Shown here: in pieces, positions 4,102-62,356 of the stretch
Numbering within the stretch: the first letter of the stretch is position 1
How the letters are laid out: each line of letters opens with the position of its first letter
Source of the DNA: a phage
Assembly (NCBI GenBank): GCA_012441205.1
Contig: GCA_012441205.1_4705.1
Length of the DNA stretch: 64,000 nucleotides
Direction: 5' to 3' (one strand)
Translations under genes and position numbers: made by a program
Notes under the pieces: generated by a model
Seen by the model: the letters and a program-made list of their open reading frames with translations, nothing else
Databases searched by the model: none
Told to the model about the DNA's origin: nothing

Positions 4102-4183
4102 CACGTCCTCCTGAAAAAGAAAAAAGAAATACGGCATAAAGCCTACCCACACAATGGTGGGTAGGCTAAGATCAACATCGATG

Positions 4184-15858: not shown

Positions 15859-15890
15859 CCCTCCTCCTTCCCTGTTGGGTTGGAGGAGGG
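15859..15890. terminator. nested hairpin element (reverse orientation) between convergent genes
   Basis: CCCTCCTCC-ttCCCtgttGGGtt-GGAGGAGGG; reverse complement is nearly identical to the copy at 43673. Confidence 0.55.
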
Positions 15891-15904
15891 TTATGCTGTC
15901 AAGC

Positions 15905-17106: not shown

Positions 17107-17634
17107 TTATACCCAATAGTCGGCAAGCGGTTTTACCTTATTAATGGGCAACTGTACTTTACCGATGTTCTCTACATCCGCATCAGCGTAGAGAACAATT
17201 TTATCACCGTCTCTTTCCCAACGAATAATGAATCGACCAGGAAGAAGATTACTCTGTTCAAGAGACGCAGTAACCTGTTGTGTTAAAACAGACAACCAAG
17301 CAGGCATCAGTGTTGCAACATCTAAGTCATTTGACCATTCAGCGCGTTGCTCCACTGGACGTAACATACGTTCGACGGTGCGTTGAACTGTTGCGGTGAT
17401 ATAGCCTTTATCTTCGTCACTGATTGGATCAGGACGAGACACAAAACGTTCAGCAGGCTTGTGGGTAATATATTCATGCAAATCGATGAGTGGTGTTGTC
17501 ATAGTACTCGCTCCATCAGAATGTAATTGGGTAACCCGTAGGGTTGTCTGCATGCTATTCAGCAGCGCAAAAGCGCCATAAACAACAACGATACCAAGTA
17601 TAGCCAAAACAGAAATCATTAACGTGTATTGCAT
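17107..17634 (-). CDS. N-terminally membrane-anchored protein
   Basis: Start MQYTLMISVLAILGIVVVYGAFALL (GGGGAG upstream); single N-terminal TM helix. Confidence 0.5.
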   Translation of the reverse strand: MQYTLMISVLAILGIVVVYGAFALLNSMQTTLRVTQLHSDGASTMTTPLIDLHEYITHKPAERFVSRPDPISDEDKGYITATVQRTVERMLRPVEQRAEWSNDLDVATLMPAWLSVLTQQVTASLEQSNLLPGRFIIRWERDGDKIVLYADADVENIGKVQLPINKVKPLADYWV

Positions 17635-17682
17635 TGTCATCTCCCCTACATACGCATCTTGAAGATCGGTTAAAAACAACAA

Positions 17683-19364: not shown

Positions 19365-19370
19365 TTATCG

Positions 19371-19398
19371 AGCCTGTCCTTCGGGGCAGGCTTTTTAT
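19371..19398 (+). terminator. rho-independent terminator
   Basis: AGCCTGTCC-ttcg-GGGCAGGCT followed by TTTTTA, directly after the stop of 18543..19364. Confidence 0.75.
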
Positions 19399-20013: not shown

Positions 20014-20045
20014 CATCCTCCCAACCCGTAAGGGAAGGGAGGATG
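20014..20045. terminator. nested hairpin element between convergent genes
   Basis: CATCCTCCC-aa-CCCgtaaGGG-aa-GGGAGGATG with GNRA-type GTAA tetraloop. Confidence 0.6.
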
Positions 20046-31760: not shown

Positions 31761-32654
31761 TTATTCGGAAACGTTATAACCGAATACTGCTTTACCGTAG
31801 GTGTGAGTACCGTCAGCTAACGACAGCACCAACACATGGTTGTATGTAGCGTTAACGCCTTTATCGGTAGACCCGGTGGTAGCACCGTTATAGACAAAGG
31901 TAGCTGTTTGCAGATTGGTTTTCAGTTCATTGATGATATCATCACTTACACCAGTCTGTTCTTTAATCAGGGTGGTCAGGTTACCCGCTAAGCCTGCATC
32001 GATCTTGGTATCGTTACTGGTAATAGCTTGTAAACCTGCGGTGTAAGTACTGAAGTCTAACGGATAGGTTAACAGACGTGCTGAGGTCTTGGTACCATCG
32101 CCTTCATCAACGTAGGTTAAGTTACCCAGATTGGTAACCTTGATGATGTTAGCCAGATCCAGCGTGGTGTTATAAACTTTAACTTGAACAGAGCCATACC
32201 ACGCCAACGAATCTTCTTTGGCTTCCAGGGTGATCGTCTGGATACCATGCTGGTCGAAGGTAACCGGCGTAGCTAACGTTTCGGCTTTGATGTCTTTCGC
32301 TTTATCCAGGAACTTCTCACCGGAAGGCGTGATCATACCGTAGCGTTGAGCTACAAGGTCAACCACATCACCGATGGTGGTGTTCGCCTCAACGTTAACA
32401 CGTACAGCGATCTTCTGGAACCACTTAGCCAGATCCAGACGATGGTAGGTGACATCTCGGTTATTGAAGTAAGGGGTACCTTCACCAGGACTAAGTGTTA
32501 AAGTTGCTTCTGGAGCAGAAGGATTCTTTTCTTTAAGGACGTATTTAAGGTCGGTATATTTAAAGCTGGCACCAGTGTCAGCGTTAAGCTGGTTGATCTC
32601 ATCAACGATAAGTTGCCAAGGTGTTTTTAAAGTAAGCGATACTTGAGCAGTCAT
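31761..32654 (-). CDS. YYDR-domain paralog family member (structural protein candidate)
   Basis: Internal start MTAQVSL with GAGGAAG SD; shares YHRLDL ... LAWYGSV ... GYNV motifs with 43714, 45536, 46398 and 32794 genes. Confidence 0.55.
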   Translation of the reverse strand: MTAQVSLTLKTPWQLIVDEINQLNADTGASFKYTDLKYVLKEKNPSAPEATLTLSPGEGTPYFNNRDVTYHRLDLAKWFQKIAVRVNVEANTTIGDVVDLVAQRYGMITPSGEKFLDKAKDIKAETLATPVTFDQHGIQTITLEAKEDSLAWYGSVQVKVYNTTLDLANIIKVTNLGNLTYVDEGDGTKTSARLLTYPLDFSTYTAGLQAITSNDTKIDAGLAGNLTTLIKEQTGVSDDIINELKTNLQTATFVYNGATTGSTDKGVNATYNHVLVLSLADGTHTYGKAVFGYNVSE

Positions 32655-32793
32655 TTTCTTCCTCGATAGTTGGTACATCACTCTCAAAAGATGTAAGTGT
32701 TTACAGAAATTAATATATTTTATATTAAATGTGAATATTATGGAGAACGACTCCGAATCTCCTTTTCGACCATCAAAATCAGAGGACACGAAC

Positions 32794-33339
32794 ATGTCTA
32801 CTTTAGACTTTAACAAAGCAGCGAAATCCCTTCTGCTTGATCTTATTAACACCAAAGCGACCCGCACATTGGCTGAAGAAGAACTGCAGTTCGGTACTCC
32901 GCAGGAATCTTCCGAACATGAAAAGAACACCGTTATTCAGCTGGACGCGGCGGCTGAAGCAGCTAACCTGCAGGGTACTCAGCAGTTCTACTACGATCGT
33001 CTGGCTCTGTCTGACGTTTTCGCTGATGTAACTGGTGATGTTACTTTCGAACTGCCGCACGGTACTGACAGCATTCAGGCTTCTGAGCTGGTAAGCAAGC
33101 TGGTCACCAAATTCGGTCTGGCTTCCCTGAATGGTGAAATCAGAGAAGAAACCTTCCAGCTGTCTGCCGGTACTGTTGATGAGGTAATTCTGAATGCGAT
33201 CGAGGGTGGCCTGGTATACACTGGTACTCTGCGAGTTGCCCTGACCTACGCACTGGCACCAAAAGACGAACTGGCAACCGTTCTGGCGAATAACGTAGCT
33301 GAAGGTTTCGAGAAACCGACCGTTAGCGTTGTTGGCTAA
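32794..33339 (+). CDS. abundant small virion protein candidate, minimal member of YYDR-domain family
   Basis: Strongly biased E. coli-like codon usage; FYYDRLAL ... FGLASL ... LVYTGTLRVAL matches the family domain; GAGGA before ATG at 32794. Confidence 0.6.
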   Translation: MSTLDFNKAAKSLLLDLINTKATRTLAEEELQFGTPQESSEHEKNTVIQLDAAAEAANLQGTQQFYYDRLALSDVFADVTGDVTFELPHGTDSIQASELVSKLVTKFGLASLNGEIREETFQLSAGTVDEVILNAIEGGLVYTGTLRVALTYALAPKDELATVLANNVAEGFEKPTVSVVG

Positions 33340-42381: not shown

Positions 42382-43662
42382 ATGTATACATTGGTAAAAA
42401 CTTACGGATTACCCGTAGGTTCTGGCACGGCCTGGACAGCACTTGAGGCGGGTGAAAGTGTCCTGAGTACGTTGTTCTCAACGTATCAAAAACTCAAGAT
42501 CCAGGTTCATGAAAGCTATGCTGACCAGCAACAAGTTATTGATCTGTACGCATTTCAATCCGAGCTTCAAAATAGTAGCGATACGCTTAATGCGTGGTTG
42601 AAAGCGAAATCGGATGCGCATACCAACCTTCGCGGACAGCCCGGCGAGCTGTCGATTAAAACCCACAAGCTCTATTGCCATGACGCTATTACAGTAGGCT
42701 TTCTTCCCAAAGTCGGTAATAGCGGCTATCATCCGAGCAACGCGATCCCTGAGTCGGAACGCACTGATATCCTGTTGACGAAAGCAAATACGAATTACGA
42801 AAATATCGGCAAACATTGTCTATTCACCGTAGGCGGTTATGTTCACCCTCATGTCTACGGTAAAGATGTTGGCGTCTATATCCAGGGTGGGTTCAAAACA
42901 GCACAGCGCAGCCAAGAAAACGATATCGGCATGATTGATTTTAGCCGTATCGGGAGTTTGGAAATTCATGCTATCACAGAAGAGATGATTGCTGATTCCA
43001 CGAAGCTCTTGCCGTATAAGGACGAGATGTACTTACGGCTACCGCGCAAGGTCGCCGAAGATGAAACCGTTGCGCTGGTGTTCGGGGGATATTTACATCT
43101 TCTTGACGATTGTTACACGATCGTTAGTGACACGACAGCGAAAATAAACTGCATTAATATGTTTCTGTATGAAAGATACTTCCGCTCCCGCAAATACCTT
43201 GATTTAACATCCCTTGGTATTCTGCTGAACGAAGAAGACCCGCAGTCCGACATTGTTGCCAATCGTTTACTGTCCGATAAAGCATTAAAAGCTTGGGTGA
43301 CGCACCCCTGCAGTTTCTGGGTGTATATCAAAGCAACATCGATTCAGGTTACGCAAGAACCTTTACCACGAAGTGGCGTACCAGGACAATATTTCTTAGG
43401 TAAGAAACCGGAAGGACTGATTCGAGCCGATCTCGGCGAGTTACCGGCTTACGTGCAGACCTATGAAAAACCGTTATGGGTACTTCACTCGCGTTGGGGA
43501 CTTCGTAAGAACATGTTGTTTGAAAATACATTGTACAAACATACCCGCGTTAAGAGACTTAACGATACGCCTTATCTTCACCAGGTTTGGTTGGAAACGC
43601 ATGCGACGTTACAGACAGTACACAAGCTCGAATTGATCGATTCCAGTCAGAAAAACAAATAA
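42382..43662 (+). CDS. hypothetical protein
   Basis: 426-aa ORF; no motif recognised. Confidence 0.6.
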   Translation: MYTLVKTYGLPVGSGTAWTALEAGESVLSTLFSTYQKLKIQVHESYADQQQVIDLYAFQSELQNSSDTLNAWLKAKSDAHTNLRGQPGELSIKTHKLYCHDAITVGFLPKVGNSGYHPSNAIPESERTDILLTKANTNYENIGKHCLFTVGGYVHPHVYGKDVGVYIQGGFKTAQRSQENDIGMIDFSRIGSLEIHAITEEMIADSTKLLPYKDEMYLRLPRKVAEDETVALVFGGYLHLLDDCYTIVSDTTAKINCINMFLYERYFRSRKYLDLTSLGILLNEEDPQSDIVANRLLSDKALKAWVTHPCSFWVYIKATSIQVTQEPLPRSGVPGQYFLGKKPEGLIRADLGELPAYVQTYEKPLWVLHSRWGLRKNMLFENTLYKHTRVKRLNDTPYLHQVWLETHATLQTVHKLELIDSSQKNK

Positions 43663-43672
43663 CCAAACATAA

Positions 43673-43704
43673 CCCTCCTCCAACCCGTAAGGGAAGGAGG
43701 AGGG
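43673..43704. terminator. nested hairpin element (archetype copy) between convergent genes
   Basis: CCCTCCTCC-aa-CCCgtaaGGG-aa-GGAGGAGGG: perfect 9-bp outer stem, symmetric AA bulges, 3-bp inner stem, GTAA tetraloop. Confidence 0.65.
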
Positions 43705-46397: not shown

Positions 46398-47333
46398 TTA
46401 GCCTTGTTCTTCTGGAGAACGACCCTGGAGGCTTGCGGTATGTCCGTCGACGTTGTAATAGAAAATCAATGGACCGCCGACAGCAGTACAGTAGTTTTCA
46501 TCCAGACTGATCTCGATACCGTATTGGTAACCTGCTCGTGCTGGAATACGTCCACCTAACTCGCCGTTGAAAGCCACTTTAGCGTTATACAGGTTATACG
46601 GTGCGATGTTGTCGTCTAATACCCAACGATCGGTAGTCATTTCAGCCAGAAGATCGGCAACCACCACATCGCTAATAACGGTACCTGTTACCAGCGAAGC
46701 CAGCAGTTCACCGTAATCAGAGGTATCACGACTGTAACTGTAAATCTCACCGCTAGCGCGTACGCCTTGACCAAAGAACTTAAGACCATCCAGCTCCTTG
46801 ATCGCGATAATATCATCAAGATTCGGTACACGCGACTTCATCAAGATACGAACGCTCCCCGTCCAAGCCAGGCAGTTAGATGCGACACGAAGCAATTGTC
46901 CGTTAACAGTATCCCAGTTAAGTTCGTCGTTGACGATTTCTTCCGCGGTAAGACCAAGACCGAAACGTTCTTTGATGATAGGCCAGATATCACGCATCTT
47001 GGCGGCGTCTGGCGCATCGATAAGAATAGGCGCTACGTTACGCAGATACGCACCGATATTGATACGATCGTAATACAGCGTCGTCGAACCTTCATAATCG
47101 TCTAACTCGGTAAGCTTAGCGGTTGCTGTCGCCGTAATCTGGGTGTCGCGCTCATAGGCGCTTTGGTTGGTGGTTGGTGTTCCTAAAACCAATAATTCAG
47201 GGGTTAGGATATGCTCTCCGTTCTGAGGTGGGTTATCGTGGTTGATAAGACCATACACGAGATCGGATGAGGGTAAAGAGACGTCGACCGGGTAAAGTTC
47301 GGTGTCGTCAATAGTTGTTACCGTATCACTCAC
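46398..47333 (-). CDS. YYDR-domain paralog family member
   Basis: LYYDRINIG ... LAWTGSVRILM ... DENYCTAVGGPLIFYYN. Confidence 0.6.
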   Translation of the reverse strand: MSDTVTTIDDTELYPVDVSLPSSDLVYGLINHDNPPQNGEHILTPELLVLGTPTTNQSAYERDTQITATATAKLTELDDYEGSTTLYYDRINIGAYLRNVAPILIDAPDAAKMRDIWPIIKERFGLGLTAEEIVNDELNWDTVNGQLLRVASNCLAWTGSVRILMKSRVPNLDDIIAIKELDGLKFFGQGVRASGEIYSYSRDTSDYGELLASLVTGTVISDVVVADLLAEMTTDRWVLDDNIAPYNLYNAKVAFNGELGGRIPARAGYQYGIEISLDENYCTAVGGPLIFYYNVDGHTASLQGRSPEEQG

Positions 47334-55753: not shown

Positions 55754-57553
55754 TCAATCGATTATGTCGTGATCGTTAATTTCTACAATTTCTTCATCGA
55801 ATCGACCGACGTCTTTCTTCAAGCCTGCATTGGTTGCTGCAACGTCATTTGCAATTTGTGGGGTAATGATTAACCGACCGCGCTCATCGATAGGTGCGTA
55901 CATACTGAACTTCTGACGTCCGGTTGGTTCGGAGTGTGGAAGATTCAGATAGCTTGCACAGAACGGGATGGAACCACTAACCAAACGACTCTCGTCAGCC
56001 AATGCAGCACCGCCTGCGTTTTGGCTCTGGAGAACAACATGCGTGCTCACTTTGAACAGCATGCAATCACCCGGTGACTGAATCGATGTTGCCACTTTCT
56101 CACGTTTATCACGATTGCTCTGGATATTGAGAATCGCTTCCGTTGCAACTTGATTTCGCAACGCCTTCTGTACATCACGATTGGTCATCTCTTTACGGTT
56201 GTTCTGTCGTTTACCACGTTCTGTGGTTTTAAGATGGAACCCCAGTTTAAAGATGCTCTTACGCACATCCTCCATGACATATTCCAACACCATCAATTCC
56301 TTACCGAACATCGTCGTGGTATCAACACGACTCATTTCGATAGTGACATTGTCAATCAGATACGCCATAAATTCGTAGAAGTCGTCGCAAGGAATATTTT
56401 CCTGTTTGAACTTCTTCTGTTGAATTTCATCAACGTAAAGATCGAGACTGTCGATGTGGTGGTTTACATCACGCAACAAACGCGCATCCGCGTTGTTGTT
56501 ATTAAAGATAATCAAACCGAGTAATGTACGCCAATGGTCTGGCGCATTCGCGAACTCTTCAACCGGATAGTCTTCCGGAAAACGATCGTAATAACGGTCG
56601 ATGAGATACAAGAATGCACCGACAAGGCCAAGAACAATACGTTCCGTGCCTCCACGTCTTACTGCAATTTGAATATCAGGATGTTTGTAACGTACAGCGC
56701 TAGCGCTACGGCTTTTACCGCTTTTGCTGATACTAAAACCTTTAGGAATAACCCCCATGGTGCGATAGATTACCCATTGGTCACGCGGAAAATCACGTTC
56801 AGCAAGGTTCCGTCCGGTTACGGCTTCGACACCTGCAAAACGTCGGAAACACTCACCCACCCCGTACTTCGCAAAGAGATAGTGACCCAGTGTGGTTACG
56901 CTGGTGTGGTTGATGTTGTCACCGTTCACTTTACTTTGTTTGGTAAGATGATAGATTTGTGACCAGGGTAATGACAGGTAATGACGATAATCGATACCGG
57001 TCGGTGTATCATTGCTCAGGAACTGATACGGTGTACGTTTAACCGTGATTTTGTCACGCGGAAGCATGATGAACGCCATGTCTTTCGTGTAACTGATTAC
57101 CGGGTCAGCGAGCACTGCACTGAGAATGAAGTTCGCACCACGTAGACGCATTTTACCACCCTGACCTACCGCGGGTAATAGGAGAGGATGTCGGATAATG
57201 CAGTAGTCCTTTCCGGGTTCACGACGGTCACCTGATTCCATCGCTCCGTACCAGCGGAATTCTAGCATCACCATAAACACATCGGATGGCGCAAGGTCGA
57301 AGGTCAGCTTACCGCTATCCTTCCCTTTGGTTTTCTTTCCTCCGCTTAAGTAGTGGAACTGTTCGCGGGCCATACAGCGACGCAGGCCATGATACACCAG
57401 ATCCTTAGGTAAACTATCTTTGCTGTTCCGCCAAAGACGATCAACATAGGACTCAACATCTTGCATCTTATCGACGACGATGTTGCGTGCTATCTTCTCG
57501 TTCATCTTCGGTGCAAGCCCAGCGACAGCTTTGCAGAATCTAGGATCCATCAC
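55754..57553 (-). CDS. 599-aa hypothetical protein in putative early operon (worth testing as nuclear-shell/chimallin-like)
   Basis: Long ORF tightly linked to neighbours; no motif recognised. The chimallin idea is pure inference from size and operon context. Confidence 0.55.
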   Translation of the reverse strand: MMDPRFCKAVAGLAPKMNEKIARNIVVDKMQDVESYVDRLWRNSKDSLPKDLVYHGLRRCMAREQFHYLSGGKKTKGKDSGKLTFDLAPSDVFMVMLEFRWYGAMESGDRREPGKDYCIIRHPLLLPAVGQGGKMRLRGANFILSAVLADPVISYTKDMAFIMLPRDKITVKRTPYQFLSNDTPTGIDYRHYLSLPWSQIYHLTKQSKVNGDNINHTSVTTLGHYLFAKYGVGECFRRFAGVEAVTGRNLAERDFPRDQWVIYRTMGVIPKGFSISKSGKSRSASAVRYKHPDIQIAVRRGGTERIVLGLVGAFLYLIDRYYDRFPEDYPVEEFANAPDHWRTLLGLIIFNNNNADARLLRDVNHHIDSLDLYVDEIQQKKFKQENIPCDDFYEFMAYLIDNVTIEMSRVDTTTMFGKELMVLEYVMEDVRKSIFKLGFHLKTTERGKRQNNRKEMTNRDVQKALRNQVATEAILNIQSNRDKREKVATSIQSPGDCMLFKVSTHVVLQSQNAGGAALADESRLVSGSIPFCASYLNLPHSEPTGRQKFSMYAPIDERGRLIITPQIANDVAATNAGLKKDVGRFDEEIVEINDHDIID

Positions 57554-57589: not shown

Positions 57590-59032
57590 TTACTTTTTCG
57601 ATGACACTTTCTCAAGAATCTTGAAAAAGGTCATACCTATACCGACAACGGCCGCGGTTATGCTCGCAGCGGCTTTCCAAACATCGACGTTACGTTGACG
57701 TCGCGCTTCTTCCGCTTCACGTTGTCTTTTTGCCTCTTCATCACGTCGACGTATCTCAGCAGCAAACTCGTCGTGCTTACGTTTGGATTCTTCGTCTCGA
57801 CGACGAAGTTCAGCGACGAATTCTTCATGTTTGCGTTTAGCCTCGTCGTCACGACGTTTTAAATCAGCTTGATAATCTTCGTGTATTTGTCTACGTAGAT
57901 CATCTTGACGCTTCATTTCGGCTTGGTGTTGTTCCATCCTACGTTTTTGTTCGTCTTTAAGCTGATCGAGTTCGGCTTTATGTTGTTCATCACGCAGCTT
58001 TGCGTCGGCGCGATGCGCCTCATGCATCTGTGCGATAACTGCCTTGTGTTCATCCGCCATACGTCGCATTTCAGCCATCACCCCTTTAAGGGTTTCTTCT
58101 GATGCCTTACGTTCGTAGCTACGTTGGTCGAAATCATTTTTGTAGGCTTCTTTTTGGATGGGGTCGCGCCAATGCAATGCCGATTCACGTGTCGGAAAAA
58201 CATTGTACTTCCACATCTCTTTTTCCAAATCTTCGACCGGTACGAAGATGGAGTCATTATTCCCGAAGGTAACCAACATACCTGGCGCGCCTGCTCCATT
58301 CGTTGGTTTTATTTCGAACGCTTTCCCCAACACGTTAACCCATAAGCTATACGGATTATGAAAGTCGGGCGGCGTCCAATGGATAGTGAGTTGCGTTCCG
58401 AGAATCCGGAAACCCTCTGTTTTTCCCGTCAAGCTCCGCGCGCACGTTGCGATGTAGGGGTGATCAATCCCTTTCGTAACGTGGTCTGCGCTTTTGTATT
58501 CTCCTTTAACTTTTACGATTGCCACGTTGATTTGCGCGACATAAGCGGGTTGATTAAAGTTCAGCGTGTTGAGGTCAATTTGACATATCTCATCCAGCGT
58601 ATCGTACCAGTCTTGCTGGTCTAATAGACGCGGCATTTTCTCAGCGTTAACAATACGACGGATATGCGGTTTCCTTATCGCGTAACCTGTACCGTTTTTA
58701 ACACGGAGTATATCCCGACGTCTACCCGCGTAGACGAAGTTTCTGAATGCACCATTCGCATTAGATACGTCATGGCTGTCAACTATTACAGGACTACGAA
58801 ATTTTGAACGTCGTACGATCCTGAATGTATTGCCGTCCTCAACCCTACCAGGAATGTACTGGAACATATTGTCGGAGGTGATAACCAACACGGTATGGCC
58901 AGATTCATTAATACATGCCCATCCTAATTCCAGGTCATATAACGGTTCAGCATAACCGTCAATGCGATAAGCGTGCGTACCATCCCACGGTTCGAACGCG
59001 GTATCACATATTGGCATGGAGGGCATCGTCAA
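57590..59032 (-). CDS. tail-anchored protein: globular N-domain, K/R/E/D-rich coiled-coil with tandem repeats, C-terminal TM helix
   Basis: Repeats KRRDDEAKRKHEEFVAELRRRDEESKRKHDEFAAEIRRRDEEAKRQ then AAASITAAVVGIGMTFFKIL at the C-terminus. Confidence 0.6.
   Translation of the reverse strand: MTMPSMPICDTAFEPWDGTHAYRIDGYAEPLYDLELGWACINESGHTVLVITSDNMFQYIPGRVEDGNTFRIVRRSKFRSPVIVDSHDVSNANGAFRNFVYAGRRRDILRVKNGTGYAIRKPHIRRIVNAEKMPRLLDQQDWYDTLDEICQIDLNTLNFNQPAYVAQINVAIVKVKGEYKSADHVTKGIDHPYIATCARSLTGKTEGFRILGTQLTIHWTPPDFHNPYSLWVNVLGKAFEIKPTNGAGAPGMLVTFGNNDSIFVPVEDLEKEMWKYNVFPTRESALHWRDPIQKEAYKNDFDQRSYERKASEETLKGVMAEMRRMADEHKAVIAQMHEAHRADAKLRDEQHKAELDQLKDEQKRRMEQHQAEMKRQDDLRRQIHEDYQADLKRRDDEAKRKHEEFVAELRRRDEESKRKHDEFAAEIRRRDEEAKRQREAEEARRQRNVDVWKAAASITAAVVGIGMTFFKILEKVSSKK
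57710..57880 (-). repeat. in-frame ~54-bp tandem repeat inside CDS 57590..59032
   Basis: DNA repeats encode the ~18-aa RRRDEE(S/A)KRKH(D/E)EF(V/A)AE(L/I) unit about 2.5 times. Confidence 0.5.
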
Positions 59033-59180
59033 CCTCCATCAGATTGAAAACTATCACGCATAATACATTTCCCTTTTCTTGTTCTTATCGAGCCGACAGC
59101 CGACGGTTTCAGCATCGTTCCTAGCGCGAGAACGACCTTACGTGTTGTCTATGCCTTATTCATCGCAGGCGTCTGTCACC

Positions 59181-59200
59181 TAGGTAATGTAAGCGTCAAA
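59181..59200 (-). promoter_or_regulatory. promoter-like motif (TAGGTAATGTAAGCGTCAAA on + strand)
   Basis: Same family as 5258, 18418 and 30976; about 150 bp upstream of minus gene 57590..59032 and downstream of the hairpin that follows the 740-aa gene. Confidence 0.4.
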
Positions 59201-59234
59201 TTTTTTCTATTCGCAACAATAAACGGCATAGAAA

Positions 59235-59264
59235 CCTCCCCCAACCCTTGCGGGCTGAGGGAGG
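59235..59264. terminator. nested hairpin element downstream of the 740-aa virion protein gene
   Basis: CCTCCCcc-aa-CCCttgcGGG-ctga-GGGAGG; a second small hairpin CCGGA-tgaatg-TCCGG lies at about 59285. Confidence 0.55.
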
Positions 59265-59363
59265 CTGACTTATGTATCACGGTGCCGGATGAATGTCCGG
59301 TGCAATGAAACCATCCGCAACGTTGTCGTCAAGAATATCATCCAACGAAGCAGCTACGGTAGT

Positions 59364-61586
59364 TCAGTTAGTCTGAACAGGCAGCTTGATGTTTTCAGTG
59401 TAGACCTTACGCAGGTTCACAACGTTAATCAGACCCAGCAGCGGGCAGTTGTTAACGAAGCGGCAGCGCGGCTGAACCATGGTTTCTTTAGAAACCTGAC
59501 CGTTACGGGTAACCTGAGCAACAGATACCAGTTCCGGTACATACAGGAACATACCGAAGGTCAGCGGATCCGGAGAACCCTGGATACCACGAGACAGGGT
59601 CACGAAGATCTTATCGCGCAGCATGACGTTCGGGTTATCTACAACTACGAAGTTGAAGCTTACACCAACGGTACGGAAATCACCATCGGTCTGCAGGAAC
59701 TGCGGGATGTAGTTGTCAGTTGCTACTACGCAACGCGGTTTCTCATCAGCGTTGGAAGACAGCAGCTGCAGAGCTGGCTGATAACCAGACTCGGAGTACA
59801 TGCGGTATGCCATCTCACGAATCACGTTCATGATCGCAGCAGACACTTCAGCACGACGTTCTGCAGTGGTGGTACCCTGAACAGATTTCTCCAGGTCCAG
59901 ATTGATTTCTTCGAACCACGGACGGATCAGGTAACGACCGAAACCTTCGATCTGGATGTCACCGAACTGACGGAAGCGAGAGGTCGCAACCGCTTTCAGT
60001 GCGTCTTTGTAGCTGAACAGTTTCTCAACCATCAGGTTGTCGAAACGTGCGTTAGCAGCTTGGATCAGAACGTCCAGGTCAGCAGCGTTTTCTTCCCAAT
60101 CCAGCGGACGAGGAATGGAGAACGGAGCCAGCAGGCCGATTGCGTAACGTTCTTGCTTCATGTTGAAGTCAAGGTGCTTACCGCGCTCACGACGGTTGCT
60201 GTTGTTACGGCGGATACGCAGTTCGTAACCAACCAGTTTGAAGCTCAGGTCTTCAGCCAGTTGTTTGAACTCTTCGCTCTTACGCGGTTGTTCGATGTTG
60301 TCCTGATCAACCAGGCGATACAGTTCAGCGTTAGCGCCGTTAACACGCAGACCGGCTTTCTCTACGTTGGAAGAACCGTAAACTTCGATCGCCAGCTGAG
60401 CAGCAGATTTCGCATCGATGATGTCCTGCAGCGCTTCAGCTTTCGCGCCTTTAACGTCTTTGGTGTTCTCATCAACGAAGATGGAGTGGGTGTCGAACGC
60501 CAGGGTCATTTTGCGGAAGTCGCCTTCCAGGGATTTCTGGAAACCGTTGGTGATCAGACCAGATACGTCGAACGGTACGTAAGAGGTTTTGCTGTGCTTG
60601 GTAGATTTGATTTCCACCAGGATTTTGGTCAGCGTGATCTGGGCGTCCAGCGCGTCGGTGTTGTCGCTGTAACCGTTAGCCAGGATGCTATCGTCTTCAG
60701 CAATACCGATCATGTCGATCAGTTTATCAACAGCCAGGTAAGACGTTTTGTAAGTTACGCCTTTAATTTCGATGTCGCGCGGAGCAACGATAGCTTTGTC
60801 AACGAAGTACTGTGCGTTAGCATCGTCAGCACGATAGATCGGATGCAGATCGGTCACGTCGTTGGACAGAACGTCGTTGTACATGAACGCATCCAGCAGC
60901 GGACGACGTACCCAATCAGCCGGAGTACCGTCAGCGTTACGACGCAGGTGGTTGAACACCAGCGGACGACGGAAAGATACGTCGTAACCGATCTGGTTCG
61001 GAGCCAGAACGATGGTGTTGTACAGTTCGTTACCCATGCGGCTCAGACGAGAAGCCTTCACGTTGAACACAACGGAGTACGGCATCATGTCACGCAGTTC
61101 TTTCTGGTCGTAGGACAGCTGAACCAGTTCTTCAGATTCGCAACCGCAGGAATCAGCAGCCATCATGACGAAGTTAGAGCTGTCAACTTCACGGCCAGAC
61201 GGAGTGGTGCTGATGTTCATGGAACGTGCTTGTTTAGCATATTCTACCGGGTTACCATGAGCCAGCATGATCAGTGCTGCTGCACGAGCCTGCTGTGCGT
61301 TCATGGTGAACAGCTGTTCTTCAATACGCTGCTTCTCTTCCGGAGTGGTGGTTTCGAAGCCCAGCATGGACAGAACCGGTTCTTCGGCTTTACGGATGTC
61401 GCTGCTGAAGCTCTTAACATCCATTTCGTTAACCAGTTTGTCCATGGATTTGAAATCAACCTTAGAAGCAGATTCCATAGACAGGAAGGTGTTCTCCAGA
61501 CCTTTGTCTGCTGGTTTGCTACCATTAGCGGTCAGGAACTGGCGAGTGGCCGCGACCTGTTGGCTAAGAAGGGTTTTATCATTCAT
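59364..61586 (-). CDS. highly expressed 740-aa virion protein; candidate major capsid protein of a jumbo phage (tail sheath not excluded)
   Basis: Strongest codon-usage bias in the window; size matches phiKZ-type capsid proteins (~740-750 aa, from memory). The antisense 766-aa ORF on + strand is a shadow ORF. Confidence 0.45.
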   Translation of the reverse strand: MNDKTLLSQQVAATRQFLTANGSKPADKGLENTFLSMESASKVDFKSMDKLVNEMDVKSFSSDIRKAEEPVLSMLGFETTTPEEKQRIEEQLFTMNAQQARAAALIMLAHGNPVEYAKQARSMNISTTPSGREVDSSNFVMMAADSCGCESEELVQLSYDQKELRDMMPYSVVFNVKASRLSRMGNELYNTIVLAPNQIGYDVSFRRPLVFNHLRRNADGTPADWVRRPLLDAFMYNDVLSNDVTDLHPIYRADDANAQYFVDKAIVAPRDIEIKGVTYKTSYLAVDKLIDMIGIAEDDSILANGYSDNTDALDAQITLTKILVEIKSTKHSKTSYVPFDVSGLITNGFQKSLEGDFRKMTLAFDTHSIFVDENTKDVKGAKAEALQDIIDAKSAAQLAIEVYGSSNVEKAGLRVNGANAELYRLVDQDNIEQPRKSEEFKQLAEDLSFKLVGYELRIRRNNSNRRERGKHLDFNMKQERYAIGLLAPFSIPRPLDWEENAADLDVLIQAANARFDNLMVEKLFSYKDALKAVATSRFRQFGDIQIEGFGRYLIRPWFEEINLDLEKSVQGTTTAERRAEVSAAIMNVIREMAYRMYSESGYQPALQLLSSNADEKPRCVVATDNYIPQFLQTDGDFRTVGVSFNFVVVDNPNVMLRDKIFVTLSRGIQGSPDPLTFGMFLYVPELVSVAQVTRNGQVSKETMVQPRCRFVNNCPLLGLINVVNLRKVYTENIKLPVQTN

Positions 61587-61735
61587 TGAAAGTATCCTTT
61601 ACAGAATTAACTTATATAAGTCGGTCGATAGACCATAGCGTACACGCGTGCATGCGCCACTATAGTATCAGTAAACACTTACCGTTATTGAGGTCGTGAT
61701 ACAACACTAAAAATGCCGCATAACTTTTCCCTACG

Positions 61736-62356
61736 TCACAAACGACGCAGGCGATAATGGATGGAACGATTGGTGCAATATGAACGGAACAGCGGCAATT
61801 GCGCAACTTCCGCAAGACTCATATTAATTCGCAGGTGTTCAATAACGGCGCTGTAGTTATCAGCAATACGATCGCTCAATAACTCTTCTGCCAATAAAGG
61901 AAGACAATCGACAACAATCGCGATCACATCCTCATTAACATAACGCACCCGAACACTCAACGGACGTTTGTCTGGGCTGTAAGTTGGATCCGCCAAACGA
62001 CGTTCAATATCACGCGGATAGCTCGTCAGTAAATGGTAATAACCATTGTCATAACGATTGATGTACTCACACAGCACATCAACATTCTTCTCTGGCGGCA
62101 AACCTGTTTCGTCATAGTGATACGCAAACATACCACCAAGCAGGTTGTTAAGATGAACCGCAGGGTTCGCTTGTTCGTGTTCTTTCGTGATGAAGAAAGG
62201 CACGTTCTGGGCTGCGAAATAAAAACCTACATCATTGGGCGATAGTATGCCGAAAAGACTTTTAGGGTCTAATAACACCTGTAAGTCATCACGCGCATTT
62301 CGAATAATCGCGTGTTCTACCCAATTCGGAACGACGAGATATCGGAGTTCCTTCAT
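61736..62356 (-). CDS. hypothetical protein
   Basis: 206-aa ORF upstream (minus strand) of the 740-aa gene. Confidence 0.55.
   Translation of the reverse strand: MKELRYLVVPNWVEHAIIRNARDDLQVLLDPKSLFGILSPNDVGFYFAAQNVPFFITKEHEQANPAVHLNNLLGGMFAYHYDETGLPPEKNVDVLCEYINRYDNGYYHLLTSYPRDIERRLADPTYSPDKRPLSVRVRYVNEDVIAIVVDCLPLLAEELLSDRIADNYSAVIEHLRINMSLAEVAQLPLFRSYCTNRSIHYRLRRL

Follow-up and report, generated by a model that had tools for sequence, protein, structure and literature searches.

A codon-optimised major capsid protein gene and a putative phiKZ-type terminator in a Goslar-like jumbo phage

Introduction

In the 64,000-nt stretch of phage DNA analysed here (hereafter the window; contig GCA_012441205.1_4705.1), one long minus-strand gene is set apart from its neighbours by its codon usage. 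On the basis of this bias and of its size alone, a preliminary description had proposed a phiKZ-type jumbo-phage major capsid protein as its product, and had noted a nested hairpin behind it. We ask what this gene encodes, how its transcription may start and end, and whether the additional reading frames that remain open at the locus are genes.

Results and discussion

Identity of the gene

The gene occupies positions 59364..61586 of the minus strand, with exact coordinates in the list of open reading frames (ATG at 61586, TGA at 59364-59366), and codes for 740 amino acids. Its product matches the Pfam family PF25620 (PhiKZ_MCP) with E = 5e-218 and 725.7 bits, against a gathering cut-off of 27, and the alignment spans the full model, residues 98-731 falling on positions 2-635 of 635. 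It also matches PHROG 3231, 'major head protein' (1.5e-164). Among solved structures, PDB 11bt differs from it at 2 of 740 residues and chain A0 of 36za ('Major capsid protein') is 100% identical to residues 158-740; the PDB search further returned PhiKp24 8bfl (E = 6e-62) and phiKZ gp120 8y6v (7e-56). Goslar gp41, annotated in RefSeq as 'major head protein', shares 99.7% of its amino acids. The guess made from size and codon bias is thus confirmed by homology to Pfam, PHROG, PDB and Goslar entries, and the size itself is indeed that of a phiKZ-type capsid protein (740 aa; the gp120 chain of phiKZ in 8y6v has 747).

Size alone would also be compatible with a tail sheath or with another large virion or non-structural protein, and a best homology of this kind had been named beforehand as the outcome that would overturn the capsid proposal. 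However, only capsid families appear among the Pfam, PHROG and significant PDB matches, a solved capsid chain has exactly the mature sequence, and the sheath and tube of Goslar are gp218 and gp217, encoded elsewhere, so that a non-capsid identity has practically no probability left. The gene is an ortholog of Goslar gp41 and phiKZ gp120, and we are almost certain that its product is the major capsid protein of an E. coli chimallivirus of the Goslar type, that is, a nucleus-forming jumbo phage. This result anchors the annotation of the whole window. To capsid biology it adds nothing new, a protein that is essentially identical having a published structure.

The closest characterised system is Escherichia phage vB_EcoM_Goslar, whose gp41 (YP_009820726.1; PDB 11bt/11fg/11mk/11ml, 36za) has 738 of 740 residues in common with the window protein and an identical mature part. 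The two substitutions, S73/M74 in the window and T73/L74 in Goslar, both lie in the segment that is absent from the virion. The DNA of the two phages is 98.5% identical over 7 kb, and they agree in gene order, flanking spacers, hairpin stem and TATG tail; 20 of the 22 nucleotide differences in the capsid gene are synonymous, and the hairpin loop is GTAA in Goslar but GCAA in the window. None of eight public Goslar-like sequences is an exact match, the best reaching 99.1% at the DNA level. Across nine genomes, variable sites in the gene number 146, 14 and 4 at codon positions 3, 1 and 2, which, together with the synonymous counts, indicates that selection on it is purifying. Relatives between 60% and 99% identity were absent from the phage collection, and a scan of IMG/VR and metagenomes for such intermediates returned only sequences with 99-100% amino acid identity.

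Pseudomonas phage phiKZ gp120 (8y6v), the founding member of PF25620, belongs to the same family and resembles the window and Goslar proteins in its HK97-plus-I-domain architecture, T=27 shell, a gp119 homolog directly upstream and, probably, the loss of ~160 N-terminal residues. It differs by an identity of only ~26% and by its Pseudomonas rather than E. coli host, with codon usage tuned accordingly. The best solved relative outside Goslar is the major head protein of the Klebsiella jumbo phage PhiKp24 (8bfl/8bfp), a distant match that covers residues 188-737; no model was built for its N-terminal arm, and the C-terminal arm, which in phiKZ contains a helix, is loop-like (phiKZ capsid paper).

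Structure and maturation of the capsid protein

In the Goslar virion, gp41 has the HK97 fold, to which an insertion (I) domain is added, and its 1,615 copies are arranged as hexons and pentons in a T=27 icosahedral shell ~147 nm across; its role as capsid protein has been established by cryo-EM, virion mass spectrometry and GFP tagging and localisation (Goslar virion preprint). The same fold and shell can be carried over to the window protein from these solved, nearly identical chains, and a very high copy number in the virion is to be expected from the 99.7% identity. Codons 158-740 (59367..61115, minus strand) accordingly code for the mature subunit, comprising N-arm, P, A and I domains and C-terminal arm, as delimited by the identity to 36za and by the domains described for Goslar (Goslar virion preprint). 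Codons 1-157 (61116..61586) presumably code for a propeptide absent from the mature capsid: by cryo-EM of Goslar, 583 of the 740 residues could be modelled in the hexon and 576 in the penton, residues 1-157 being devoid of density (Goslar preprint).

PDB 36za likewise begins at S158, and the N-terminal 157 residues are probably cleaved off; a prohead protease of the phiKZ gp175 type would remove them during head maturation. Prohead proteases of this kind reportedly follow an S/A/G-x-E cleavage rule. There is no glutamate directly before S158, the first ordered residue, and the closest motifs, G148-C-E150 and S151-E-E153, lie 4-7 residues ahead of it in the local sequence VMMAADSCGCESEELVQLSYDQ, so cleavage would most likely occur after E150 or E153. 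The site is thus predicted for the window protein, whereas that of phiKZ gp120 has been mapped at E163|N164 (phiKZ capsid paper).

Codon usage

Compared with the 55 other ORFs of at least 100 aa in the window, the capsid gene has by far the strongest codon bias, as the preliminary description had stated. Its codon adaptation index (CAI), computed with the E. coli weights of Sharp & Li, is 0.752, against a mean of 0.290 (sd 0.068, maximum 0.575; z = 6.8). The effective number of codons (Nc), which needs no reference table, yields the same ranking, with 30.1 for the capsid gene against a mean of 52.1 and a minimum of 38.9 for the other ORFs. Leucine is encoded by CTG in 96% of cases and phenylalanine always by TTC, and AGA, AGG, ATA, TTA and CTA are absent. 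Such near-maximal use of the codons preferred by E. coli, to which the gene would have been driven because so many capsid copies are needed per particle, would allow fast translation by host ribosomes. The second most codon-adapted gene of the window is the counterpart of Goslar gp23, also a high-copy virion protein. As the capsid gene shows, codon bias read by eye can single out the most abundant protein of a virion.

Upstream neighbour and 5' leader

The ORF upstream of the capsid gene (61736..62356, minus strand) sits where gp42 does in Goslar, as seen in the 7-kb alignment. Goslar gp42 is a homolog of phiKZ gp119, a vertex-complex gene, and the gp119-gp120 synteny is therefore retained in the window. 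The spacer between the two genes, a 5' leader of 149 nt (61587..61735, minus strand), contains two TATG motifs (61719-61722 and 61634-61637) and, 8 nt ahead of the ATG, the sequence AAGGA (61595..61599), which reads as Shine-Dalgarno-like and presumably acts as such.

TATG is the essential core of the late promoters used by the phiKZ non-virion RNA polymerase (nvRNAP), where transcription starts at the G, and the two leader motifs are candidate promoter cores of this type by analogy. Capsid transcription would then be late, carried out by the non-virion RNA polymerase of the phage from a TATG-type promoter within the 149-nt spacer. A scan for sigma-70 promoters around the capsid gene gave nothing at relevant positions and fewer sites than shuffled sequences; this outcome, like that of the simple terminator scan described below, is in keeping with a phage relying on polymerases of its own. 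Searches of the whole window gave 0 Rfam matches at gathering thresholds and 0 tRNA genes, so the flanking spacers are not accounted for by any known RNA family.

The leader is also unusually conserved. In nine genomes, 6 of its 149 sites vary, compared with 146 of 740 third codon positions in the capsid gene (Fisher p = 3e-7), and this may point to late-expression control. Nevertheless, the first 100 capsid codons partly share this low variation (8 of 100 third positions vary, versus ~22 of 100 further in), so that the conservation may be a regional effect. A structured leader was considered and rejected, its predicted fold being no better than that of shuffled sequences (z = -1.3).

A putative terminator downstream of the capsid gene

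Behind the capsid gene, 97 nt past its stop, the gene strand carries the hairpin AGCCTCCCTCAGCCC-GCAA-GGGTTGGGGGAGGTT (59233..59266, minus strand), a two-tier stem of 15 bp closed by a GNRA tetraloop, which scan, folding and relatives lead us to regard as the presumed stem of an intrinsic terminator. Its earlier description as 'nested' is fair, an outer CCTCCC/GGGAGG stem enclosing an inner CCC/GGG stem. A wobble-tolerant scan counts 15 pairs and RNAfold 14, with -29.2 kcal/mol for the hairpin alone, and its 81-nt context folds better than shuffles (z = -4.9). The stem is fully paired in 7 distinct sequences, in which 6 pairs alternate between wobble and Watson-Crick; none of the 6 one-sided changes abolishes a pair, each being absorbed by a G-U pair of the kind that the mRNA strand alone can form. 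These pairing-preserving changes lend indirect support to an RNA-level role. The available relatives, all close, contain 0 double-sided compensatory pairs. The loop is GCAA in the window, GTAA in seven relatives and TTAC in one, L008.

Two nucleotides past the hairpin comes the tail TATGCCGT (59223..59230, minus strand), which includes the nvRNAP promoter core TATG and is the counterpart of TTATKYYGT in the phiKZ terminator motif. ONT-cappable-seq of phiKZ yielded the terminator motif 5'-BCCYCCCCHWWDGGGRRGGBYTTATKYYGT-3', a hairpin-plus-tail layout that coincides with mapped RNA 3' ends in 61 terminator regions (Putzeys et al. 2024, PMC10914365). All parts of that layout are present at the capsid gene, namely a C-rich/G-rich stem-loop, a tail and a same-strand gene upstream, with one mismatch: the tail reads TC-TATGCCGT (CTATGCCGT) and has C in place of the first T in TTATKYYGT. 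The likeness to the phiKZ motif extends to the CCTCCC...GGGAGG stem, to the (T)TATGCYGT lying 1-3 nt behind it and to the location in the 3' UTR of same-strand genes. The window element differs in its longer, two-tiered stem (15 bp, with the inner CCC/GGG) and in the mismatched first T.

This element is the strongest of six hairpin-plus-tail copies in the window. All six lie 32-134 nt past a same-strand stop codon and have TATGCYGT 1-3 nt past the stem, and the five sisters, also two-tier, are closer to the TTATKYYGT tail consensus than the capsid copy. The tail motif TATKYYGT is not enriched by itself in the window (25 matches versus 21.4 ± 4.5 expected), and is informative only where it follows both a stable hairpin and the end of a gene on the same strand; a cruder test, asking only for a hairpin followed by TATG, gave a weak signal (6 of 105 hairpins versus ~2.4 expected). 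By analogy with phiKZ, we infer that the hairpin and TATGCCGT belong to a conserved class of chimallivirus intrinsic terminators, in which case the capsid transcript would end there, ~100 nt past the stop codon. Weak points of this reading are the shortness of the U run after the hairpin (UUUCUAUG) and the fact that a simple terminator scan did not call the element. The recurrence of a phiKZ-type hairpin plus TATGCYGT in a Goslar-like genome would make this a recognisable terminator family. The copy at the capsid gene is unannotated in the Goslar records.

Alternatively, the main role of the element may not be termination: it may stabilise the 3' end or be a site of its processing, or its TATG may be a late promoter for the following gp40 homolog (57590..59032), hairpin and tail forming a coupled stop/restart module. 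We consider this possible but unlikely. It is consistent with the short U run and with the constant position of TATGCYGT behind the stem in all members of the family. Moreover, TATGC is invariant in nine genomes within a highly variable stretch, and the beta-like subunit of the phiKZ nvRNAP reads TATG as a late promoter. On the other hand, the layout of the phiKZ counterpart matches mapped RNA 3' ends, all six elements follow the end of a same-strand gene, and the leader of the next gene would be roughly 195 nt long if its promoter were at 59227. More speculative, and in our opinion decidedly doubtful, is the generalisation that every two-tier hairpin with TATGCYGT is a dual mark, at which the hairpin halts the polymerase and TATG re-initiates transcription for the next gene. 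A stop/restart reading would explain why the terminator tail contains TATG instead of a plain U-tract and, if true, would provide chimalliviruses with a compact unit that insulates the heavily expressed capsid transcript from its neighbours.

Additional reading frames at the locus

Between the capsid TGA and the terminator-like hairpin, the capsid frame continues for 28 codons without a stop until a second TGA at 59277-59279 (59277..59363, minus strand). A leaky stop codon would endow a minority of subunits with a 29-residue acidic C-terminal extension (x-TTVAASLDDILDDNVADGFIAPDIHPAP), analogous to A1 of Qbeta or 10B of T7. The stretch is open and the second TGA invariant in 9 of 9 genomes, the 3 variable sites among the four closest sequences are all synonymous third positions, and the CAI of the stretch (0.446) exceeds the window mean of 0.29. 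This promising picture dissolved with nine sequences: once the divergent relatives were added, 7 of 10 variable nucleotide sites alter the amino acid, and the three codon positions are hit 5, 3 and 2 times. In addition, an open run of 28 codons would arise by chance with a probability of ~0.26, the CAI falls short of the 5% quantile for stretches of the same size within the capsid gene, and the stretch uses TCG, TTG and CTT, codons that the capsid gene avoids. The cryo-EM model of Goslar gp41 stops at residue 740, and its C-terminal arm forms part of the packing of a beta-barrel at the hexon centre. Read-through is hence very improbable, and the stretch is probably non-coding 3' UTR.

The opposite strand carries a shadow ORF of 766 aa (59289..61589, plus strand) that is longer than the capsid gene and is a product of its codon bias. 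As the longest frame at the locus, it is the one chosen by a length-greedy gene picker, which raises the question of whether it is the real gene and the 740-aa ORF its shadow. It lacks Pfam matches, and its PHROG matches are at noise level (E >= 0.08). Each of its codons is the exact reverse complement of a capsid codon, and the frame owes its openness solely to the lack of TTA, CTA and TCA in the capsid gene (0 versus 23.9 expected). The variation among nine genomes sits on third positions of the minus-strand frame, and it is the minus-strand product that has been seen by cryo-EM. On this evidence from homology, codons and variation, we reject the 766-aa ORF as a gene, the reverse assignment being barely conceivable. 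The case is a warning for gene callers, as extreme codon bias can yield an antisense ORF that exceeds the real gene in length.

The capsid protein and its genomic setting

The minus-strand gene at 59364..61586 (ATG start, TGA stop, 740 aa), whose coordinates proved exact, had been put forward in the preliminary description as a candidate jumbo-phage major capsid protein, and profile and structure searches agree in supporting that call. Its only Pfam match is PF25620 "Bacteriophage PhiKZ major capsid protein gp120", which spans positions 2-635 of the 635-position model at E = 5e-218 and scores 725.7 bits where the cut-off is 27, and PHROGs returned phrog_3231 "major head protein" (1.5e-164). 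Among solved structures, PDB 11bt "Major capsid protein" differs from the window protein at 2 of 740 residues, and residues 158-740 match 36za without a single difference (100%); further matches were phiKZ gp120 (8y6v, 7e-56) and the head protein of PhiKp24 (8bfl, 6e-62). A tblastn search against 50,697 phage records retrieved 230, nearly all from jumbo phages; most of the underlying genes are labelled major head or capsid protein, and some carry the label 'hypothetical protein'. Near-identity was confined to the two copies of Escherichia phage vB_EcoM_Goslar (99.7%). The protein is thus known already and its structure has been solved; the phage encoding it differs little from one that has been characterised. 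With the capsid protein itself known, some novelty remains at the regulatory level only, in a family of hairpins followed by TATGCYGT and in a conserved capsid leader.

In Goslar, an E. coli nucleus-forming jumbo phage, the ortholog gp41 is the major capsid protein, building the hexons and pentons of a T=27 shell ~147 nm across from 1,615 copies, and virion mass spectrometry places it among the most abundant proteins (10.64898/2026.04.21.720040). It adopts the canonical HK97 fold with an insertion domain and can be superposed on phiKZ gp120 though their identity is only ~26%; GFP-tagged gp41 localizes to the phage nucleus and later to "bouquets" (10.64898/2026.04.21.720040). Of its 740 residues, 583 are built in the final hexon model and 576 in the penton model (10.64898/2026.04.21.720040). 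phiKZ gp120 is cleaved at E163/N164 (PMC11297242). The corresponding region of the window protein reads VMMAADSCGCESEELVQL|SYDQ, with S158 as the first ordered residue. By the S/A/G-x-E rule of the phiKZ-type protease, the cut would plausibly follow E150 or E153, both slightly N-terminal to S158.

Over 7 kb around the capsid gene, DNA identity to Goslar is 98.5% and gene order is the same, a genome context that points to a Goslar-like phage. The window is distinct from Goslar and from all eight Goslar-like sequences compared (best match 99.1% in DNA), and the capsid protein of one of these relatives, L006, is identical to that of the window. RefSeq names the Goslar ortholog "major head protein"; in the GenBank record of Goslar (MK327938 / NC_048170 pair) gp41 is still a 'hypothetical protein'. 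Directly upstream of the capsid gene, as in Goslar, lies the counterpart of gp42 (61736..62356), a member of the inner vertex-binding complex and homolog of phiKZ gp119 (10.64898/2026.04.21.720040), so that the phiKZ gp119-gp120 synteny is preserved here. Downstream, on the minus strand, are a 480-aa protein without family assignment (57590-59032), which has a long stretch of charged repeats (RRDEE/AKRKHEEF...) and a C-terminus that is hydrophobic, and a 599-aa protein (55754-57553) that matches PHROG 2943 'polymerase' at 1.2e-119 and is presumably part of a subunit of one of the phage's multisubunit RNA polymerases. The spacer that separates the capsid gene from the gene after it (59033-59222) shows the highest variability of the locus even apart from an insertion of ~50 nt that the relative L010 (ERZ1026852 contig) carries there, corresponding to window ~59125.

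Selection and codon usage

Of 22 nucleotide differences between the window and Goslar capsid genes, 20 are synonymous, and both amino-acid changes (S73T, M74L) fall within residues 1-157, the segment missing from the virion. Across nine genomes the gene has 164 variable sites, distributed 146/14/4 over codon positions 3/1/2.

That this gene has by far the strongest codon bias in the window was borne out in a comparison of 56 ORFs, none overlapping another and each 100 aa or longer. Its CAI, calculated with the Sharp & Li E. coli weights, is 0.752 versus a mean of 0.290 for the other 55 ORFs (sd 0.068, maximum 0.575; z = 6.8), and its effective number of codons, which is reference-free, is 30.1, where the others average 52.1 and go no lower than 38.9. 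CTG accounts for 96% of Leu and TTC for 100% of Phe, and AGA, AGG, ATA, TTA, CTA and TCA are never used. The second most adapted gene (32740..33339, +), with CAI 0.575 and Nc 38.9, is the counterpart of Goslar gp23, a 'virion structural protein' with DUF7941 that is listed among the high-copy virion proteins of Goslar (10.64898/2026.04.21.720040). Codon adaptation therefore tracks protein abundance in this genome, and the bias of the capsid gene would have the ordinary explanation, translational selection. Paralogous PHROG 1037/2935 proteins are encoded at 31761-32795 (-) and 46398-46997 (-).

The same bias accounts for an antisense ORF of 766 aa (59289..61589, +), longer than the capsid gene, which we reject as a shadow ORF. 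Its codons are exact reverse complements of capsid codons, it has no family matches, and nothing but the absence of TTA, CTA and TCA from the capsid gene keeps it open (0 versus 23.9 expected, P = 3e-11). A gene caller relying on length would choose the wrong strand at this locus. An extension of the capsid by read-through of its TGA is disfavoured: in all nine genomes the frame beyond it (59277-59363, -) is open for 28 codons to an invariant second TGA, and there 7 of 10 variable nucleotide sites change an amino acid and codon usage is unlike that of the capsid. This stretch is probably non-coding and read-through is very unlikely.

A hairpin family resembling phiKZ terminators

The hairpin noticed after the gene is real. 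Located at 59233-59266 (-), on the same strand as the gene and 97 nt past its stop, it reads AGCCTCCCTCAGCCC-GCAA-GGGTTGGGGGAGGTT, with 15 pairs by a wobble-tolerant scan and 14 as drawn by RNAfold; it folds alone at -29.2 kcal/mol and its 81-nt context has a folding z of -4.9 versus shuffles. A scan of the whole window showed that all six intergenic TATGCYGT sites following a same-strand gene (4131, 15892, 19396, 20049, 43707 and 59223) have a very stable two-tier hairpin 1-3 nt before them, with CCTCC.../...GGAGG stems (respectively 4140-4167 (-), ~15859-15891 (+), 19370-19393 (+), ~20014-20045 (+), ~43673-43704 (+) and 59233-59266 (-)). Each element lies 32-134 nt past a same-strand stop codon, and all share one design, in which an outer CCTCC(T)CC/GG(A)GGAGG stem encloses an inner one, CCC/GGG, with a tetraloop. 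For the 45-mers upstream of the six sites, folding energies range from -18.7 to -29.7 kcal/mol (random 45-mers have a 1% quantile of -17.2), and the capsid element is the strongest. None of the eleven other TATGYYGT sites in the window is directly preceded by a two-tier hairpin; they lie inside or antisense to ORFs, except one intergenic site 309 nt past a stop.

This layout is that of the conserved phiKZ terminator motif, 5'-BCCYCCCCHWWDGGGRRGGBYTTATKYYGT-3', which coincides with 61 mapped 3' ends of transcripts (PMC10914365); the tail of the capsid element has one mismatch to the consensus, CTAT for TTAT. In the nine genomes, which represent seven distinct sequences, all 15 pairs are kept, six of them having changed on one side only between G-U and Watson-Crick. 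These one-sided changes preserve pairing on the capsid-mRNA strand only, and the comparison supports a role at the RNA level. Compensatory double changes were not available among the relatives found, because all have at least 94% DNA identity over the region. The tetraloop reads GCAA in the window and GTAA in seven relatives, which makes it GNRA in eight of the nine genomes; in L008, the most divergent relative, it is TTAC. The TATGC that follows the hairpin is invariant, with varying neighbouring bases. By analogy with phiKZ, we infer that the element would be the intrinsic terminator of the capsid transcript.

The tail of the six elements contains TATG, the essential core of the late promoters of the phiKZ non-virion RNA polymerase, at which transcription starts at the G (PMC4666361, PMC12809450). 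The TATG after the capsid hairpin may have a restart function. Some features named 'putative transcriptional terminator' are present in the Goslar RefSeq annotation (records MK327938 / NC_048170), one of them at 17603-17637, but there is none in 43101-43438 for the much stronger hairpin after gp41.

A conserved capsid leader

Preceding the ATG in the 149-nt spacer upstream of the capsid gene (61587-61735, -) are two TATG motifs, with the G at a distance of 133 and 48 nt, and a Shine-Dalgarno-like AAGGA at 8 nt. The spacer is unusually conserved among the nine Goslar-like genomes, with 6 of 149 sites variable versus 146 of 740 third positions (p = 3e-7), and the first 100 capsid codons (~300 nt) are also low in third-position variability (8/100). 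The predicted fold of the leader is unremarkable and not significant (z = -1.3). A weak hairpin at 61730-61751 overlaps the stop of the gene upstream of the capsid.
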